From an uncultured Aeromicrobium sp. (GTDB lineage Bacteria; Actinomycetota; Actinomycetes; Propionibacteriales; Nocardioidaceae): 43,157 nucleotides of DNA. Where the stretch lies: NCBI RefSeq assembly GCF_946221465.1, contig NZ_CAMJVP010000001.1, forward strand, positions 1 through 43,157, written 5' to 3'. The position numbers and the translations under genes are program-made. Shown here piece by piece: positions 6,262 through 39,810 of this stretch (position 1 is the stretch's first letter; the number at the start of each line of letters is the position of its first letter). The notes below the pieces were generated by a model. The model was not told the DNA's origin. It saw only the letters and a program-made list of their open reading frames with translations, and did no database searches.

Positions 6262-8983
6262 GTGCTCCCCGCGTGAGCGGGGATGATCCTTGAGGAGGTC
6301 GACATCGCGCCGGTGGTGCCGACGTGCTCCCCGCGTGAGCGGGGATGATCCCCGTCGGTTGAGGTTGTGGTCGTTGTACTTGGCGTGCTCCCCGCGTGAG
6401 CGGGGATGATCCGCATGGCCGTCGTGAGCCGGTCGCCGAGTGGGCGTGCTCCCCGCGTGAGCGGGGATGATCCCCGACAGATCAGTGACTCTGAGCGCAT
6501 CCAGCAGTGCTCCCCGCGTGAGCGGGGATGATCCGACCTCGATATCGACCTCGTCGAAGCCACGACCGGTGCTCCCCGCGTGAGCGGGGATGATCCGAGA
6601 CCGAGCCCACTTCGGCAGCAGAACGTGAGGTGCTCCCCGCGTGAGCGGGGATGATCCCACTTTCGACGGCGCGATGGACCGGGTGAAAGCGTGCTCCCCG
6701 CGTGAGCGGGGATGATCCGGTCCGCCCCATCGACCTCGGCGGCGAAGCCAAGGTGCTCCCCGCGTGAGCGGGGATGATCCCGGGCCTTCGACGAGGGACC
6801 ATGGCCACGCATGGGTGCTCCCCGCGTGAGCGGGGATGATCCGGTCGGCGACCTACTCAAGGGCGTTTTCGACTCGTGCTCCCCGCGTGAGCGGGGATGA
6901 TCCGCCGAGAGCTTCGCTGATCTGGGCATAGGTTTTGTGCTCCCCGCGTGAGCGGGGATGATCCGGAGCACGCTGACGCCTGGCGCGACCGCGAGAGGTG
7001 CTCCCCGCGTGAGCGGGGATGATCCCGGCGCACGCTTCCCCTTCTCCCCTACGACGCGGGTGCTCCCCGCGTGAGCGGGGATGATCCGCCCCGGCGTACA
7101 TCCGCGACGCTGTACTCGCGGGTGCTCCCCGCGTGAGCGGGGATGATCCGCCGATCCCACTGCCCACCGACAAGATCGATGTGTGCTCCCCGCGTGAGCG
7201 GGGATGATCCCGACCTCAAAGCCGCCCACCAGGCCGCAGGCTCGTGCTCCCCGCGTGAGCGGGGATGATCCGAACCGAAAGCTGCCTCGCAGTCGGCCAT
7301 CTTGGTGCTCCCCGCGTGAGCGGGGATGATCCCCTCGTCGCGCAGCTACGCGAGACGTTCGCGATGTGCTCCCCGCGTGAGCGGGGATGATCCCGTCCGC
7401 GTGGAGGAGACCGACAAGATCGAGTCGTGCTCCCCGCGTGAGCGGGGATGATCCCCCGACCCGGCGCGTCCATCCGTCGGTGAGCACGTGCTCCCCGCGT
7501 GAGCGGGGATGATCCGCCGCCGCACTCTGGGCCGGATACCACGAGGGAGTGCTCCCCGCGTGAGCGGGGATGATCCTCCACGACCGATCCGAGACCACCA
7601 GCAGCGGCTGTGCTCCCCGCGTGAGCGGGGATGATCCCTCCGTCTCGGTGAGCTTGTAGATGCCGCTCATGTGCTCCCCGCGTGAGCGGGGATGATCCCG
7701 GCCGCTGCCTCCTGCGCCCGTCCGGCTGCCTGTGCTCCCCGCGTGAGCGGGGATGATCCGACCGGGTGATCTTCATCGACGTCGTTGATGAGGTGCTCCC
7801 CGCGTGAGCGGGGATGATCCTGGAGTCGTCACCAGGATCTCGACATGGGTGACGGTGCTCCCCGCGTGAGCGGGGATGATCCGATGCTCTCGACCATCGG
7901 GTCCCGCAGCTACGAGTGCTCCCCGCGTGAGCGGGGATGATCCGAACGGCGGCGGCATCGCCCTGGCCGGCCCCCAGTGCTCCCCGCGTGAGCGGGGATG
8001 ATCCCGTCGCTGTCGTGGCGATGGCCCAGCTCAACCGGTGCTCCCCGCGTGAGCGGGGATGATCCCTTCAGGTCACCTGGATCTCGGGGGCCAGCGGAGT
8101 GCTCCCCGCGTGAGCGGGGATGATCCGACTCTCGAGGCGCTGCGCGCGGCCGACCGCTAGTGCTCCCCGCGTGAGCGGGGATGATCCGCCGAGGTCCGAT
8201 CCGTCCTCCTCCAGATCTTCGTGCTCCCCGCGTGAGCGGGGATGATCCGGACGCGAAGTTCGGCCAGATGGTGCCGGCGTCGTGCTCCCCGCGTGAGCGG
8301 GGATGATCCCATCGTCACCGCCGAGGACCGCTACGTCGATGTGTGCTCCCCGCGTGAGCGGGGATGATCCGCGCTCGCGACCGCGTTGCGGAGCCGGTCG
8401 AAGGTGCTCCCCGCGTGAGCGGGGATGATCCGGGCTGCTCCTGGACGCCGGTCGTGTGGAGGATGTGCTCCCCGCGTGAGCGGGGATGATCCCACGATGG
8501 AGCCGTGTTCTCCGTCCTCATCGACGTGCTCCCCGCGTGAGCGGGGATGATCCGGTGCTCTGAGGCTCGGACAGCTGGCGGACGCATGTGCTCCCCGCGT
8601 GAGCGGGGATGATCCGGTCGCGGCGAAGGCTGGACTGACGCTGGGCGCGTGCTCCCCGCGTGAGCGGGGATGATCCGATACCGCGACGTTGAAGGTCGTT
8701 CGCCAGAGCGTGCTCCCCGCGTGAGCGGGGATGATCCCGTCCACCTGACCATCTGGACCGAGCAGTGCGAGTGCTCCCCGCGTGAGCGGGGATGATCCGG
8801 TTCCGGAAGGCTCCTGAGCCATGTCGCGGGGGTGCTCCCCGCGTGAGCGGGGATGATCCCACCGGGTCACCGCCTGCGGCACCGACGATGTGGTGCTCCC
8901 CGCGTGAGCGGGGATGATCCCCGCTCACCGCCGTGTTCCAGATCCAGCGCCGGCGGTGCTCCTCGCGTGAGTAGGAATCATCC
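6262..8983 (+). CRISPR. Type I-E CRISPR array 1: 45 repeats (last degenerate), 44 spacers of 33-35 nt
   Basis: 28-bp repeat GTGCTCCCCGCGTGAGCGGGGATGATCC, ~61-bp period; terminal copy GTGCTCCTCGCGTGAGTAGGAATCATCC at 8956-8983. Confidence 0.99.
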
Positions 8984-32698: not shown

Positions 32699-34257
32699 GC
32701 GCTCTCCTGGTGGTCGAGTTGCAGGATCTTGTGCAGTTCCCGTCGAAACCACAGCTCCGCGGAACCGGTGTCGACGTGGCGTCCGCCGGCCACGCGGCCT
32801 ACCCACGCCGCTGGGCCGGCAACTTCACAGGCTTCACTGCCCGCGGCGATCGCGGCACGCCAGAGCGTCTCCGACCAGTCCAGATCGGCACTGGCCGCGG
32901 ATTTTCGGCTGTCGCGGAGTCCATCGACCCATCGGCGGAACGGTTCATCGAGGACCGCGTAGAACCGTTCGCGAGCGAGGGAACGTCCGGCGGCTTCGCC
33001 CCCGGCGGCGCGGTCGAGGTCGGCGACGAGATTCGCGTAGGCGACAGCCACTTTGTCCACCTTCTGGACCGCTTCGATCACCACCTGACGAAGCTCGCCG
33101 CGCTCGGCGGTCAAGATGCGCACGGGAAGCGCGATCTCGTCGTCGATTACGTCGCCGAGTACGGAGGCGTTACTGACGTAGTGGGCGCCGACGGCGCGAA
33201 GGTGGGGCACGTAGGAGTCGTCGAGTACACCTCGCTCGATCATCTCGCTGAGGTGATCGAGTGTTCCAGGGCCGGTGTCGCTGCTGAGCAGTGCGGTGAG
33301 TCCTCGCCAGACGGCTCGGTCGGGTTGATGGGTGACCGGCATGAACGCCTGCCCGCCGTACTTGCGGGCCTGTGTGGGGCTCTCGCGCCAGGCGGTCATC
33401 ATCTCGACTTGGCGGAGGTTGACCGCGCTGAAGCGGTCTCCGTTGGTGATGAGCACGGCATCGACGCGTGAGCCGTCGTGCCGTAACCGCACGCGTCGCG
33501 TCTGCCAGGTCAGCACCTCGGCTCGGCCGCGGGGACGGTAGGCGATGTCGAGGTCCTCGCGATGGCGGGGTGCGGCAGTGAACTCATCGGCGATTTCCCA
33601 GGCGGCGACATCCGGCGTGCCAGGCTTCTGAGGAACGAAGTTCAGCAGCAGAGTCTCCAGGAGGTTCTCGCCCTCCAGGAGGACCCCGCCGATGTGACCG
33701 GCTGCCCCCATCCCGATGGGATAGCCCTTCGAGTTCTTGACTCGAGGGTCGCCGACGGCGCCGCTTTTGATGCCTGAGACGTCGAAGGCGTGGCAGTGCA
33801 CCAGCCATCTGGCTGCCTCGGCGAAGCTCAACGACGTGACCGTTTCGCCGCTTTTGGTGCTGAGGTAGTCCGAGCCGGCGTCGGCGATCAATCGGGTCAG
33901 TTCGGTGAATTCGTTCTTCTGCGTTCGCAGATCGGCGACCTGGTAAAACGGCACGTTCGGATCCAGCAGGTCGAAGCGCCCGTGGAAGCGAGTCAAATAG
34001 TCTTTGATCTGCGCCAGAGGCAACTCTCGCGCGCGCCACCACTGCGCCCACTGGTCCGGTTGCTCGGCAGTCGCTCGGTACATGATGGCCAACAGCAGGC
34101 GGTACAGCGCTAATGACTGAGTCGACAGGTCGCCCAGAATCTGTCGAAGTGTCGCGGCCTCCTCGAAGACTTGCATGATGGAGCGCTCCGTCACGGCGCC
34201 GTCGAAGTTCTGCACGCGTAGCCACGGTTCGTCGATGAGGTTGAAGGTGGGCGTCAT
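32695..34257 (-). CDS. cse1: Cas8e (CasA/Cse1)
   Basis: FNLIDEPW, LYRLLLAI, RFDLLDP..PFYQ, AARWLVHCHAFDVSGIKSG, LTWQTRRVRL. Confidence 0.95.
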   Translation of the reverse strand: MTPTFNLIDEPWLRVQNFDGAVTERSIMQVFEEAATLRQILGDLSTQSLALYRLLLAIMYRATAEQPDQWAQWWRARELPLAQIKDYLTRFHGRFDLLDPNVPFYQVADLRTQKNEFTELTRLIADAGSDYLSTKSGETVTSLSFAEAARWLVHCHAFDVSGIKSGAVGDPRVKNSKGYPIGMGAAGHIGGVLLEGENLLETLLLNFVPQKPGTPDVAAWEIADEFTAAPRHREDLDIAYRPRGRAEVLTWQTRRVRLRHDGSRVDAVLITNGDRFSAVNLRQVEMMTAWRESPTQARKYGGQAFMPVTHQPDRAVWRGLTALLSSDTGPGTLDHLSEMIERGVLDDSYVPHLRAVGAHYVSNASVLGDVIDDEIALPVRILTAERGELRQVVIEAVQKVDKVAVAYANLVADLDRAAGGEAAGRSLARERFYAVLDEPFRRWVDGLRDSRKSAASADLDWSETLWRAAIAAGSEACEVAGPAAWVGRVAGGRHVDTGSAELWFRRELHKILQLDHQESA

Positions 34258-37100
34258 GGGAGTCCTGTCTCGTCTCGGACGGCAACGATGCCGAGCTCGT
34301 CGTCGTAGCTGATGAGGAAGTCTCGTACACGGGTCTGACAGTTCTCGTCGAGCACCAGCACCAACTGCTCGCGCAGCCACGGCGACGCCTGCCACCCGGC
34401 GAAGAAGTTCGCCTCGAGCGCCGCGATGGTCGCGTCGATCGCGCCCGGATGGGTCAGGGCCGGTGGAAGACCCACCGTGTGAGTGCTCACCCGACGCGCG
34501 ATCGCCGGCTCTGGTGGGAACTCTTGGGGCAATGGATCGGCCGACAGTGGATCGGTGCCCCATTCGTAGATCTCACTGCCGAATCGACGCACGACGATGG
34601 CGTCGAGCGATTCGCGGCCATCCCGCACCGTGGCACGGCCCTTGGCCTCGCTGGCGTCGTTCTCCTGCCCAGCCCAGCACGACAGGGGGTCGCTGGGCTC
34701 GGAGAGGAGGAAGGACTCGGCTTTCGACTGGCGCCGGTCGCGCAACGTCGCGGCCTCTTCGCCTGCCTCGCGAGCCATGTCGGCCAGTTCCGCGGGCACC
34801 TCGTAGGTGTCACTGTAGGCGTCTTGAACCAGTTCGGGGATGTCGGCAGGAAGGGTGAGGAGGCGGGGTCGGGGTAGTCCCAAGGTCACGAGGGAGCGAA
34901 GGAGCGAGTCGGTGCCGTAGATTGCCGTGGACGCCGGCTCGAAACGGGGGACGCGATGCTCCCATTCCACTCCGGTGACCAGCAACTCGGCTTCGCTGAG
35001 GGCTGTCGGGCGTCCCGAACGATGATGGCGGTGGAGTCGTCCCGCCCGCTGGAGAACCAGGTCCACCGGCGCCAGATCGGTGATCATCAGGTCGAAGTCG
35101 ACGTCGAGCGACTGCTCCACCACCTGGGTCGCGACGACGATGTGCCGAAAAGGACGAGCCTTCGCGCGAGCTGGGGAACCGAACGCGTCCAGTAGGTCTT
35201 GTTCTTTTCGCAGTCGGTCGGTCGCGATGAACCGTGCGTGGATCAGCGAGACCTCATCGCCGTAGCGTTCGCGAAGGTGCAGGTAGGTCGTCTGTGCTCG
35301 CTTGACCGAGTTGCGGATCACCACGGCACACCCTCCGTCCTGGAGACGCTCGCCGAGCGCGGTGTCGAGCGCCTCCAGGTCGTCGTCAAGCGGTGTCATT
35401 CGGATCACCGTCGACCGTTCGTCATCGGCCGGTGCGACGACCACGGCACCCTCGCGTGTGGTGGCGCTGACCAGCGGGTACGCCCGCGACTGGGCGATCT
35501 CGATGAAGGCGGCGGGGGTGCCGTACCGACCTCGCCGGTATGCCTGGAGCATGGCGACTCTTCGATCGCTCGGCAGTGTCGCGGAGAGCAGGATGACGGG
35601 CACCTCGTAGGCGCCGAGCCATTCGAGGGCCCGGTCCATGAACACCGCCATGTACTCGTCGGCGGCGTGGACTTCGTCGATCACGACGACTTTGTTGGCC
35701 AGCGCGAGATGCCGGAGGACGAGGTGGCGGCTCCTCAGTGCCATGAGCAGAATCTGGTCGATCGTGCCGACCGTGAAGTTGGCGAGCAGGCCCTTCTTCC
35801 GGCCGGACAGCCATTCGTGAACGACGGCGACCAGACGCGCGCGGCTGGCCGCGTCCTCGGCATGATCGATATCGCGTACCGACCCGTCGCGGACGATGCT
35901 GTTGAACTCGTCGTTGAGGCCGGCCTTGCTGTGGGCGAGGTGAAGCGGCGCCGATGCGCCTGACGGGTGCGGCAGACGCTCCACCCATGCCTTGATACGG
36001 CTGAAGATGGCGTTGCTCGTCGCCATGGACGGCAGGGCGAAGAACACGCCGCCGAAACCCTGGCTGGCGGCGAGGCGCTCGGCCAGGAGCAGGGCGGCCT
36101 CGGTCTTGCCGGTCCCCATGGGAGCTTCGATGATCGTGAGACCGGGCTCGTCGACCTGCTCGGGCAGATCCAAGAGGTCACGTTGTAGCGGTCGCGCACG
36201 AGACCCGGGAGGCAGGGCGAAGCGGTCCGCGAGCAGGGTGTCGGCGTCGTCGGTTGCTGCCTCGGGACGCCACGGTTCGGGCAGATGAAGCAGTTCCCAC
36301 GCTTTTGCCGCTCGGGCGTCGCTGAAGTCGTTGTAGGGGAAGAGTTCGGCGTTGCTCGCGATCCAGTCCGCCAGGATCACGATCGCTGTCAGCAGCGCCT
36401 GGGCGCTCGGCGGGATCGGAGCGCATCGCCACGTCGGCAGATGAGTAGCACCGCCGGCGCGCCGCAGCGACTCCTCCAACAATGTGACGCGTGCGCGCTG
36501 CCATGACTCGTCGCCGAGCAACTCTGTCGAGTTGCCGCGGCGAATGTCTGAGCTTGTCGGGAAGACGCCGTGGTGTCCGCCGACGACGATCGCGAGCCGG
36601 TTGGCTTCTGCACGCTCCCAGCCGTGGTCGTCCTCCAGCCAGCGTCTGAGTGCTATCTGACCGGCTGCGCCGTGGGGGAGCAAGGGGGATAATCGGTGGA
36701 CGATCAGCTCGAATGGGTAGCCGGCATTCCAGCACTGTTCGCGCAGTTCGGGGGTGCCTTTCACCTGGAACGCGGGGCTGGCTTTGCCGACGTCATGCCC
36801 TCCAGCGAGGAACACTGCGAGGGCGCGCGCTGCCGAATCTCCTCCGCAGGCGCGTGCCAAATAGCTCTTGACGGCCGGAGGTACCCAGTGCTCCCACAGC
36901 AGGGCGCAGACGTCGGCGCTGTCGGCGAGGTGCTGCGGTAGCGACAACCACGAACCGCCGTCTCCGGTCTTGGCCCAGAAGGTCCGCGCGAGAGAACTGG
37001 GCGGGTGGCCGGTCGGATGTTCATCCAACCGGCCACCGAACTTCACCGGTTCCGCCCCGTTTTCTGAAGCTCTCTGCCAAGCTGATTCACACGCACTCAC
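34254..37100 (-). CDS. cas3: Cas3 HD nuclease/helicase
   Basis: WAK, LPQHLADS, HDVGKAS, GHHG, ADWIAS; helicase APMGTGKTE, DEVH, SAT, QRAGRLHRH. Start at GTG 37100 (GGAGG SD) is uncertain. Confidence 0.95.
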   Translation of the reverse strand: MSACESAWQRASENGAEPVKFGGRLDEHPTGHPPSSLARTFWAKTGDGGSWLSLPQHLADSADVCALLWEHWVPPAVKSYLARACGGDSAARALAVFLAGGHDVGKASPAFQVKGTPELREQCWNAGYPFELIVHRLSPLLPHGAAGQIALRRWLEDDHGWERAEANRLAIVVGGHHGVFPTSSDIRRGNSTELLGDESWQRARVTLLEESLRRAGGATHLPTWRCAPIPPSAQALLTAIVILADWIASNAELFPYNDFSDARAAKAWELLHLPEPWRPEAATDDADTLLADRFALPPGSRARPLQRDLLDLPEQVDEPGLTIIEAPMGTGKTEAALLLAERLAASQGFGGVFFALPSMATSNAIFSRIKAWVERLPHPSGASAPLHLAHSKAGLNDEFNSIVRDGSVRDIDHAEDAASRARLVAVVHEWLSGRKKGLLANFTVGTIDQILLMALRSRHLVLRHLALANKVVVIDEVHAADEYMAVFMDRALEWLGAYEVPVILLSATLPSDRRVAMLQAYRRGRYGTPAAFIEIAQSRAYPLVSATTREGAVVVAPADDERSTVIRMTPLDDDLEALDTALGERLQDGGCAVVIRNSVKRAQTTYLHLRERYGDEVSLIHARFIATDRLRKEQDLLDAFGSPARAKARPFRHIVVATQVVEQSLDVDFDLMITDLAPVDLVLQRAGRLHRHHRSGRPTALSEAELLVTGVEWEHRVPRFEPASTAIYGTDSLLRSLVTLGLPRPRLLTLPADIPELVQDAYSDTYEVPAELADMAREAGEEAATLRDRRQSKAESFLLSEPSDPLSCWAGQENDASEAKGRATVRDGRESLDAIVVRRFGSEIYEWGTDPLSADPLPQEFPPEPAIARRVSTHTVGLPPALTHPGAIDATIAALEANFFAGWQASPWLREQLVLVLDENCQTRVRDFLISYDDELGIVAVRDETGLP

Positions 37101-37134
37101 ACCGCCCTCCCTCCTCTCGTGTCCGGCTCTTTGG

Positions 37135-37163
37135 AGCGTACAGAGGAAGTTGGTTCTCGTCCA
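37135..37163 (-). promoter_or_regulatory. Predicted cas3/cas operon promoter: -35 TGGACG, 17 bp, -10 TACGCT
   Basis: Sigma-70-like hexamers with 17-bp spacing, about 35 bp upstream of the predicted cas3 start. Confidence 0.55.
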
Positions 37164-37204
37164 GCAAACGTGTTGGATAGTCTTCTCCGGTGAGCGAGGC
37201 CAGC

Positions 37205-37294
37205 GAGAGAACCCCGCTTGTGCGGGGAGCATTGCACGAAACCTCACGCTCGCACCAGCAAACGTCGGATCATCCCCGCTCGCGCGGGGAGCAC
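37205..37294 (-). ncRNA. CRISPR mini-array (repeat, 34-nt spacer, degenerate repeat); putative regulatory crRNA-like RNA
   Basis: Minus strand: GTGCTCCCCGCGCGAGCGGGGATGATCC (37294-37267), spacer GACGTTTGCTGGTGCGAGCGTGAGGTTTCGTGCA, ATGCTCCCCGCACAAGCGGGGTTCTCTC (37232-37205); both repeats keep the CCCCGC/GCGGGG stem. Confidence 0.85.
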
Positions 37295-37499
37295 CCCTCG
37301 ACACTACCTGTTGGTGGTGATTCAGTGATCGCCGCCGCATGCTCTGCCTTGATGTCGTGAAGCGGCCTCGTGCTCATGTGGTCACGTTGCTGGCCCGGGT
37401 GAGCACGATGGCGCGGCTGGTGACGATCTCGCCGGGTTCTCGTGGCGCTGAGCGGTGGAGGGGTAGTCAAGTTCACCGGGACCGCACAGCCTTCTGAAC

Positions 37500-37635
37500 T
37501 GCAATCTTGCCGTGGCGGTTCTCGTTGTGGGTACGAGGGGCATCTCATTTCTCGACCTCTCCACGTGATTCGTCAGCGGGCTATGTGAAACTGATGCCGT
37601 TCAGACTTGTACGTTGCTGTTTGTGCAGGTCAAGA
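37500..37635 (+). promoter_or_regulatory. Leader of CRISPR array 2
   Basis: More AT-rich, ends TTTGTGCAGGTCAAGA at the first repeat. Left boundary approximate. Confidence 0.6.
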
Positions 37636-39798
37636 GTGCTCCCCGCGTGAGCGGGGGTGATCCCTTCCGCGACTCGGCGGCCTCGTCGAGGAGATCGTGC
37701 TCCCCGCGTGAGCGGGGGTGATCCCGGTCGCCCCTACATCAAGACCATCCCCACCCCGTGCTCCCCGCGTGAGCGGGGGTGATCCGGGCAGGCACTGTTG
37801 CAGGCAGTCGGTCCGACGGTGCTCCCCGCGTGAGCGGGGGTGATCCCACCACCAACGACGACAGCCAGACCAACGACGTGCTCCCCGCGTGAGCGGGGGT
37901 GATCCGTGCTGGCCACTGAGCAGCGTTTCGATGACGAGGTGCTCCCCGCGTGAGCGGGGGTGATCCTCCGGTCAGCTGCAAATCTCGTGGAGGAGATGAG
38001 TGCTCCCCGCGTGAGCGGGGGTGATCCCGTGACGAGAAGGCCCCGGGGACAGCGGGGAGGGTGCTCCCCGCGTGAGCGGGGGTGATCCGGATTGTTCGGG
38101 GCGTAGAGACCTGAGAGCTCAGTGCTCCCCGCGTGAGCGGGGGTGATCCCACCGCCCCGGCGACCAGCAGCACCGGAACGACGTGCTCCCCGCGTGAGCG
38201 GGGGTGATCCCTCGACATCCCCGGCGTCATCGAACTCGGCCTCGTGCTCCCCGCGTGAGCGGGGGTGATCCCAACCACGACGAGGTGCTGACCACGATCG
38301 GGAAGTGCTCCCCGCGTGAGCGGGGGTGATCCCTCGATCAAGGTCGATCGCATCCGGCAGGAGTGTGTGCTCCCCGCGTGAGCGGGGGTGATCCGCGAGG
38401 CTGCACTGAGTATCCCTATCGCATCATGTGCTCCCCGCGTGAGCGGGGGTGATCCGGTCACGTGAGGGACGTGAGCGCCCGGTGGCGCGTGCTCCCCGCG
38501 TGAGCGGGGGTGATCCCTACGTCGACGCCGCACCGGTCCGGCAGCACGTGTGCTCCCCGCGTGAGCGGGGGTGATCCCCGACCGCACCTCACGGCCCATC
38601 TGCTCGACACGTGCTCCCCGCGTGAGCGGGGGTGATCCCCGACCGCACCTCACGGCCCATCTGCTCGACACGTGCTCCCCGCGTGAGCGGGGGTGATCCC
38701 TCGATCGCGACCCGCCATGCGCTGAATCGCCAGTGCTCCCCGCGTGAGCGGGGGTGATCCGTTGCAGAGCCTCTGTGAAACCAGGCGGGATCGGTGCTCC
38801 CCGCGTGAGCGGGGGTGATCCTGTCATGCCCGGTCATGGGACAGATCATCCTCAGTGCTCCCCGCGTGAGCGGGGGTGATCCCTCCACGTCCGCGTTGCC
38901 CGCGAAATCGGCCGCGTGCTCCCCGCGTGAGCGGGGGTGATCCCATCGAGAACGAGCGAAAGAACGCCGGAGTCGAGTGCTCCCCGCGTGAGCGGGGGTG
39001 ATCCGATGACGGTTGGATTCTCCGCAACGACGTCATCGTGCTCCCCGCGTGAGCGGGGGTGATCCGCGCCGGCCTGGTCGGGCGAGCTGTGGTCCGGCGT
39101 GCTCCCCGCGTGAGCGGGGGTGATCCGCCGGGACCGTCGTGCCAGCGGCCGGTCTTGCCGTGCTCCCCGCGTGAGCGGGGGTGATCCGCGGGATGTTCGC
39201 CTCGAAGAGTCGGTGGCGGCGTGCTCCCCGCGTGAGCGGGGGTGATCCCGGGTTGGGGCGACGCGCCTACGCCTACCGGATGTGCTCCCCGCGTGAGCGG
39301 GGGTGATCCCTCGATCGACGCGATGATCGGCGTCGCCACGATGTGCTCCCCGCGTGAGCGGGGGTGATCCCGCCGCGTTTGTTGCGGTGCAGGAGATCGA
39401 CCTGTGCTCCCCGCGTGAGCGGGGGTGATCCGGTCAGGGGCGGGAATGGAGCAGTCGCATCGCTCGTGCTCCCCGCGTGAGCGGGGGTGATCCATGGCTT
39501 CGCCGCCCACGTGCGCGAACGGCTCGGTGCTCCCCGCGTGAGCGGGGGTGATCCGTTCCGTCGCTTGAGACGAGGAGCGCTCATGAAGTGCTCCCCGCGT
39601 GAGCGGGGGTGATCCCATCACGCCGCGGCCGACCGCCTCGCCGCCGTTGTGCTCCCCGCGTGAGCGGGGGTGATCCGTCGCATCACCGGCGTTCGACAGC
39701 GCCCAAATCGTGCTCCCCGCGTGAGCGGGGGTGATCCGGAGAACAGCGATGAGCAGTGAAGCGGTCGAGGGTGCTCCCCGCGTGAGCGGGGGTGATCC
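37636..39798 (+). CRISPR. Type I-E CRISPR array 2: 36 repeats, 35 spacers
   Basis: 28-bp repeat GTGCTCCCCGCGTGAGCGGGGGTGATCC, ~61-bp period; last repeat (39771-39798) is intact. Confidence 0.99.
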
Positions 39799-39810
39799 GG
39801 AACCCTCACC

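Follow-up and report, generated by a model that had tools for sequence, protein, structure and literature searches.

The CreR class of guide RNAs has already been described for type I-E CRISPR-Cas systems, and the closest known case is that of Salmonella enterica. As presented by Liu et al. (bioRxiv 10.1101/2023.03.10.532045), the S. enterica guide matches its target over 15 bases next to an AAG PAM, ~140 bp upstream of casA, and the repression is relieved by competition from crRNAs or by Acr proteins. Shmakov et al. (bioRxiv 10.1101/2023.03.03.530964 = PMC10120712) report class 1 regulatory mini-arrays in ~19% of bacterial I-E loci, with repeat-like sequences enriched next to cas3; the criterion given in their text is a seed-anchored partial match of at least 10 bp, with a canonical PAM, near a cas promoter. 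Cheng et al. (2021, PMC8501985) describe the toxin RNA of CreTA as carrying signals for efficient translation, a pair of adjacent rare codons and, further downstream, a stem-loop. A comparable principle appears in the long tracrRNA isoform, tracr-L, which represses its own cas9 (Workman et al. 2021, as cited in Liu et al., bioRxiv 10.1101/2023.03.10.532045).

Here, we analyze a one-spacer mini-array upstream of cas3 in an actinobacterial type I-E locus, which is very probably a functional CreR-type autorepressor of the cas operon. This reading, put forward in the original prediction, is supported by the anatomy of the element, by a PAM-plus-seed match close by, by covariation with Aeromicrobium camelliae and by validation of the AAC PAM in the system's own arrays. 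The resemblance to S. enterica CreR, as far as that element is described in the source, extends to the subtype, to a degenerate mini-CRISPR of two repeats in which psi-R1 supplies the 5' handle and psi-R2 the 3' handle, and to a partial match that is PAM-proximal and PAM-flanked and precedes the first gene of the operon under control. Autorepression, relieved by crRNA load or Acr proteins, is the behavior to be expected of this element as well. The published mini-arrays of Shmakov et al. likewise have a CRISPR-like upstream repeat, a diverged second repeat and a partial, seed-anchored, PAM-flanked match. CreA, as portrayed in PMC8501985, is also a degenerate two-repeat guide with an 8-nt 5' handle and a 3' handle, and Cascade repression by it depends on partial complementarity. 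With tracr-L the element would share the principle that a natural, partially matching guide makes an effector repress its own promoter.

The differences concern mainly position and extent. In the Salmonella system as described, creR lies between cas3 and casA and controls PcasA, whereas the mini-array studied here is upstream of cas3 in a locus where that gap is absent. Since cas3 heads the operon, the brake would extend to cas3 and to cas1-cas2, unlike in Salmonella. In the I-E examples given by Shmakov et al., the mini-array is in the cas3-cas8 gap, opposite in direction to cas3, and has the cas8e promoter as its target, whereas this mini-array has the same direction as cas3 and its target in front of that gene. 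The match comprises 11 bases with AAC, compared to the 15 bases with AAG reported for Salmonella CreR, and 11 paired bases are close to the lower limit of what has been published (15 in S. enterica; at least 10 as a search criterion). CreA, as described, is defined by its partner, a toxin RNA in which two rare codons are adjacent, and the leader found here is without such a pair. Unlike this element, tracr-L belongs to class 2, is derived from tracrRNA and, in the account cited, is without a mini-array. The locus represents no new class, and it or its A. camelliae homologue may be among the supplementary lists of Shmakov et al. or Liu et al. It would add a well-supported actinobacterial type I-E case of CRISPR self-regulation by a crRNA-like guide.

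The cas locus and its mini-array

The window, by which we mean the whole stretch of 43,157 nucleotides that was analyzed, is from an Aeromicrobium-like assembly (G000; 3.48 Mb, 436 contigs, 96.9% complete), and the closest Cas3 is that of A. camelliae YS17T (locus L021), which is 94% identical. The complete operon cas3-cse1-cse2-cas7-cas5-cas6e-cas1-cas2 is on the minus strand, with Pfam matches for all eight proteins; cas3 (34254..37100) is its first gene, and it continues down to 28257. The cas6e gene is intact, and every Cascade gene is encoded in the operon. The Cse1 domain begins approximately at the cas3 stop, so there is no gap between cas3 and cse1, and a single promoter upstream of cas3 must therefore serve the operon. 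Both large arrays are on the plus strand, array 1 at 6262-8921 with 44 repeats and array 2 at 37636-39799 with 36, and the 536-nt interval between cas3 and array 2 contains the mini-array on the minus strand.

The original prediction of a one-spacer mini-array, with two repeats on the minus strand and opposite to both large arrays, is borne out in coordinates and strands. As in described CreR elements, a single spacer-like sequence is framed by two repeat-like ones, within the cas locus and apart from the arrays. The first repeat, psi-R1 (37266..37294, minus strand), is near canonical, consisting of the Cas6e hairpin and the 8-nt 5' handle ATGATCCG; it is identical to the array-1 repeat at 28 of 29 positions, with one loop base different and all 8 bases of the 5' handle the same. 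At loop base 37282, contigs from public runs show the canonical letter in other strains. Next is a psi-spacer of 33 nt (37233..37265, minus strand), with bases 1-11 as its seed (37265-37255), and then psi-R2 (37204..37232, minus strand), a decayed repeat that has kept the 3'-handle hairpin and lost the 5'-handle portion. Its 3'-handle part is identical at 17 of 21 positions, with the 6-bp stem intact in a pattern search, and its last 8 nt agree at 3 of 8. The claim that both repeats keep the hairpin stem although the second has diverged was correct, and both hairpins are present in the predicted MFE fold. Retention of the 5' handle in psi-R1 together with the 3'-handle hairpin in psi-R2 is the combination that characterizes CreR.

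Just upstream of R1, on the minus strand, is a conserved block (37295..37320) that is identical in A. camelliae and includes a -10-like TAGTGT (37306-37301) 6 nt before R1; this block is the putative creR promoter. We also considered an ordinary immune-memory array, which is ruled out by the single spacer, the loss of the handle part of R2 and the finding that, in the assembly, at least 11 anchored bases are matched only at the partial self-site near cas3 and at one CCA-flanked site.

The mini-array had been described as hidden in an over-extended cas3 ORF, and the open frame at 34254-37340 does span it; the HD domain of Cas3 starts at residue 42, numbered from the SD-led GTG at 37100. An element buried in this manner shows why annotation pipelines miss such genes. 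Pfam gave no match for the ORFs overlapping the mini-array region (36868-37320, plus strand; 37270-37548, minus strand), and an Rfam search of the region returned only a chance hairpin match to a miRNA model. None of the listed runs is on record as RNA. Run X1, for which the RNA-seq label is a guess, contributes two contigs of read length (151 nt; 37126-37275 and 37283-37430), while the cas3 body is uncovered; DNA carry-over is possible, and we draw no conclusion from these contigs.

Other features of the arrays and their surroundings can be recorded here. Repeat position 22 is consistently A in array 1 and G in array 2, and R1 of the mini-array has the array-1 form. Array 1 has a degenerate terminal repeat at 8954-8982 followed by a markedly AT-rich stretch, the rest of the window being GC rich. 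A third array with the same repeat is present on contig C62 of the assembly, at about 450-940, and it includes a spacer that agrees with the array-1 spacer at 7151 in 28 of 31 bases. Between the conserved array-2 leader and the mini-array, ~198 nt at about 37358-37555 are absent from A. camelliae, as an alignment gap, and a 92-aa open frame without a Pfam match crosses this segment.

The self-match, its PAM and the promoter region

The window has exactly two copies of ACGTTTGCTGG, both on the minus strand (37265-37255 and 37171-37161), and the second directly follows AAC, precisely as predicted. The second copy is a protospacer seed (37161..37171) identical to spacer bases 1-11 at all 11 positions, and the AAC PAM (37172..37174, minus strand) is directly 5' of the protospacer on the crRNA-identical strand. 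The match amounts to 11 of 33 bases, is PAM-proximal and is anchored at spacer base 1, as is typical of the partial matches of CreR. For spacer bases 12-33 the target match is gone, and a nominal 33-nt Cascade footprint would extend to about 37139. Beyond the seed, the original prediction had additional pairing of CGAG across a 1-nt bulge. These bases are present in the sequence, and we give them no weight because four shifted bases are expected by chance and because Cascade holds the guide in fixed 5-nt segments.

The probability of such a match was estimated for the 105 nt from R2 to the cas3 start (37100-37204), on both strands, with composition-preserving shuffles and without a PAM requirement. 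An anchored run of at least 11 bases was seen in 16 of 200,000 shuffled mini-spacers, and the 78 genuine spacers of the window have anchored runs of at most 7 bases in the same interval on both strands. Taken alone, an 11-mer match genome-wide would not be remarkable; assembly-wide, one further anchored site matches the mini-spacer over the same length, with CCA as its PAM. No second site with an AA[G/C] PAM and at least 10 anchored bases was found in the 3.48-Mb assembly. The PAM-flanked 11-base self-match is not due to chance, as the site is 94 nt from the spacer, anchored at base 1 and flanked by a PAM.

The final base of a type I-E repeat originates from the PAM. At this 29th position, 38 of 80 repeats have G, 36 have C, 5 have T and 1 has A. 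A BLAST comparison of the spacers to their own assembly resulted in five clear protospacers. One is next to AAG (spacer 39006 to contig C75, 33/33) and two are next to AAC (spacer 7700 to contig C43, 29/31; spacer 6353 to contig C63, 25 PAM-proximal bases), and the remaining two have non-AA sequences, namely GCT (spacer 6291 to contig C164, 34/34) and GCC (spacer 6782 to contig C3, 33/34). The original prediction had started from the use of AAG/AAC-type PAMs in type I-E. Because C is about as frequent as G at the 29th repeat base (36 versus 38 of 80) and two protospacers are AAC flanked, AAC is a genuine acquisition PAM of the present system, the sample being small. The five contigs with protospacers (C164, C3, C75, C43 and C63) could represent self-targeting, a prophage or plasmid, or mis-binned mobile elements.

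Contigs of four public runs cover the target, three of them identical and one variant. The variant, a low-depth contig of run X7, has one change at protospacer position 6 (37166) and another outside the PAM (37177). Runs X1 and X6 also span the spacer seed, which is unchanged.

Measured from the SD-led GTG at 37100, the target is 61-71 nt upstream, and it overlaps a weak TGGACG-N17-TACGCT on the minus strand (37135..37163), with -35 at 37163-37158 and -10 at 37140-37135, which is a candidate promoter of the cas operon. The predicted -35 box did not find confirmation. A scan for the sigma-70 consensus found no promoter in 36900-37700 and none in L021 either; the hexamer pair is a plausible cas promoter of actinobacterial type, and its -10-like hexamer aligns with TAGCCT of L021. 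The claim that the target is over a -35 is weakened because it depends on this weak hexamer pair. Promoter occlusion and a roadblock to read-through from the creR promoter are both possible.

Relatives of the element and the cas leader

To follow the element beyond the window, we compared it to the A. camelliae locus, in which the order of array-2 leader, mini-array and cas3 is identical. The degree of conservation differs sharply along the element. Over the 40 nt upstream of R1, 34 are shared, and the 26 nt adjoining R1, including TAGTGT, are identical. R1 agrees at 28 of 29 positions, spacer bases 1-12 at 8 of 12 and R2 at 22 of 29. Spacer bases 13-32 agree at 6 of 20, which is the chance level and fits a constraint confined to the seed.

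A global alignment from the target to the SD places the window protospacer in register with an AAG-flanked site of L021 (target B). The L021 guide starts GTGTTGGTTGGT, and the aligned target reads AAG followed by GTGTTTGTTGGT; the corresponding 11 bases of the window are the same in guide and target. Positions 1, 2 and 8 differ between the window and L021 in guide and target alike, and the sole seed mismatch between the L021 guide and its target is at position 6. Type I-E Cascade flips out guide position 6, as it does every 6th position. Scored alone, L021 matches at 7 of 7 seed positions and 11 of 14 scored positions, with AAG as the PAM. A second, weaker AAC-flanked site (bases 1-7) is 21 nt upstream of target B. 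Spacer-target covariation had been proposed as a check, and in this one close relative guide and target have changed together at three seed positions. The comparison, with one close relative as its basis, points to a guide-target pair that is maintained in relatives. In sequence terms the case is unusually clean, with a PAM validated by the system's own arrays and three covarying seed positions, and A. camelliae YS17T, a cultured type strain with the homologue, is a tractable test organism.

A more distant congener (locus L074 of genome G391; Cas3 53% identical) has a mini-array at L074:1190-1330 with an unusually short spacer of 21 nt. Its best AAC-flanked target matches at 12 of 14 scored positions, with mismatches at seed positions 2 and 3, and if the guide is read from the opposite end, the PAM would be GGA. 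The fit of this element to the CreR scheme is ambiguous, and it is left out of the supporting evidence. The best target of L074 coincides in part with a terminator-like hairpin and T-run just upstream of a promoter-like stretch containing TTGACT.

Three other loci of the genus with related cas3 genes (L075-L077) have no mini-array, and the element is thus dispensable. Related cas3 genes are present in only 6 of 117 genomes of the genus, and the mini-array junction pattern matches 2 of 401 genomes of the family (G000 and G296) and none of the metagenome contigs. A scan of metagenomes for Cas3 returned 72 loci, none above 45% identity, adding no close relative, and a DNA search of 61 relatives gave matches to CRISPR repeats only.

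Downstream of the target is the cas operon leader (37004..37114, minus strand), with a strong SD (37114-37105), a GTG at 37100, a rare-codon frame and a 15-bp hairpin (37037-37004) over an alternative cas3 start. Leader codons 2-12 are mostly rare in the genome, among them AGT, TGT, TCA, GCT and AGA (0.7 per thousand). AGA occurs once, as codon 10, and the rare codons are scattered, without the consecutive pair of a CreTA toxin. In A. camelliae (L021:2985-3095), the hairpin is retained through a paired one-base insertion, and the leader frame is a 26-codon uORF with a TGA that overlaps the cas3 ATG in the top of the hairpin; in the window, the frame is fused in frame to cas3. The two leader frames have four base differences, and because all four change the amino acid, the comparison suggests selection of the leader at the RNA level and not at the protein level. 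The more distant congener has an unrelated 49-codon uORF (L074:1380-1545), the stop of which overlaps the cas3 GTG (GTGA). Pfam gave no match for the leader frame, and the leader sequence has a single copy in the assembly, which rules out a dispersed repeat. As it is continuous with cas3, by fusion in the window and by stop/start overlap in L021, the leader looks like a translational-coupling leader.

Regulatory readings and wider occurrence

The CreR-type reading implies a series of steps. We infer that creR is transcribed, with a start expected from the conserved block adjoining R1, and that Cas6e would cleave at the base of both repeat hairpins, releasing a processed RNA of ~62 nt made up of an 8-nt 5' handle, a 33-nt pseudo-spacer and a 21-nt 3' hairpin. 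Cascade loaded with this guide would recognize AAC at 37174-37172, and pairing would be limited to the first two 5-nt guide segments (11 bases), which should suffice for binding while falling far short of the full R-loop that licenses Cas3. At this position, 61-71 nt before the SD-led start and over the likely -35 to -10 region, Cascade would occlude or block RNA polymerase. Repression would cover the whole operon, that is, cas3, the Cascade genes and cas1-cas2, such that a guide upstream of cas3 would throttle the nuclease and adaptation genes besides Cascade. The mini-array guide would compete for Cascade with the crRNAs of more than 80 spacers, and repression should as a result be relieved when the crRNA load is heavy or when Cascade is lost or inhibited.

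Several other explanations have to be weighed against autorepression. The mini-array might be an inert relic, an old inverted array fragment with a spacer from neighboring DNA, now decaying, in which case the 11-nt identity would be a remnant. Decay of R2, loss of the target match for spacer bases 12-33, absence of the mini-array from three congeneric I-E loci and the poor seed fit of the L074 guide to its best target are all in keeping with this. Neutral decay, however, would not spare R1 (28/29) and 26 upstream bases while the 3' part of the spacer is at 6/20, nor would it alter guide and target together at three seed positions. What has been kept is the 5' handle, the seed and the 3' hairpin, and what has been lost is the remainder. 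A kept processing signal and seed, a free spacer 3' part and paired changes make up the pattern predicted for a functional guide, as judged from this comparison, and not that of neutral decay, and we consider a relic unlikely.

The leader brings in a different possibility, that of a CreTA-like addiction module in which the guide would be an antitoxin (CreA) repressing a toxic leader RNA and cells without Cascade would be arrested. Such a module would account for the strong SD, the GTG, the rare codons at 2-12 (AGA, 0.7 per thousand) and the 15-bp hairpin downstream of the target, as well as for the change of amino acid at 4 of 4 base differences from L021 in the leader frame; the published work names four elements as critical for H. 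hispanica CreT, and the leader has three of them (SD, efficient start codon and stem-loop). The one it lacks is the defining consecutive pair of rare codons after the start, there being one AGA at codon 10, and its continuity with cas3 makes it more like a translational-coupling leader than a separate toxin RNA. An addiction module is, in our view, very unlikely. Finally, the main target of the guide could be elsewhere, in another gene, the divergent array-2 leader or a mobile element, with the cas3 site secondary. Short seeds permit many sites, the text of Shmakov et al. does not exclude further targets, and the assembly, in 436 contigs, is 96.9% complete. Against this, the assembly has no other AA[G/C] site with at least 10 anchored bases, and the site near cas3 covaries with the guide in L021; a main target elsewhere appears extremely improbable.

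Autorepression of the CreR type remains the preferred reading, and it could be combined with a second layer in the leader. The brake might reach beyond cas3 transcription if the leader were a translational gate tied to ribosome or rare-tRNA supply, or a CreT-like tRNA-sequestering element leading to dependence on Cascade, which we regard as improbable. If a CreT-like, tRNA-sequestering leader were to prove true, the locus would amount to a hybrid of CreR and CreTA, fused in a bacterial type I-E system.

The architecture is recurrent, as shown by a wider survey of sequences upstream of cas3. The survey pool consisted of 122 loci (49 from genomes, 72 from metagenomes and L074); removal of those with <300 nt of sequence ahead of the Cas3 match left 106 for examination. 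The filter called for paired GC-rich hairpins of I-E type outside arrays, a perfect seed at positions 1-5 and 7-8 and agreement at 9 or more of 10 early positions. In cas3-sense orientation it yielded L021 and 18 near-identical human-gut contigs, which, being near identical, count as one lineage. The filter is blind to repeats of other sequence types, and the survey count is consequently a lower bound. In this unrelated gut lineage, the mini-array is upstream of cas3 (L082:1240-1410 and 17 other contigs, within the set L080-L092, L096, L099, L129, L137 and L139). Over bases 1-18, its guide departs from the target at positions 6 and 12 only. The target has AAG as its PAM and begins 14 nt past a near-consensus TTGACA-N18-TATGCT promoter, making this element a textbook-clean I-E CreR candidate. 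In loci of the Schaalia type, a mini-array upstream of cas3 (L032:2670-2830 and L095:1170-1330, and also in L147) has a copy of a 17-nt direct repeat on either side, and the two copies agree at 16 of 17 positions.
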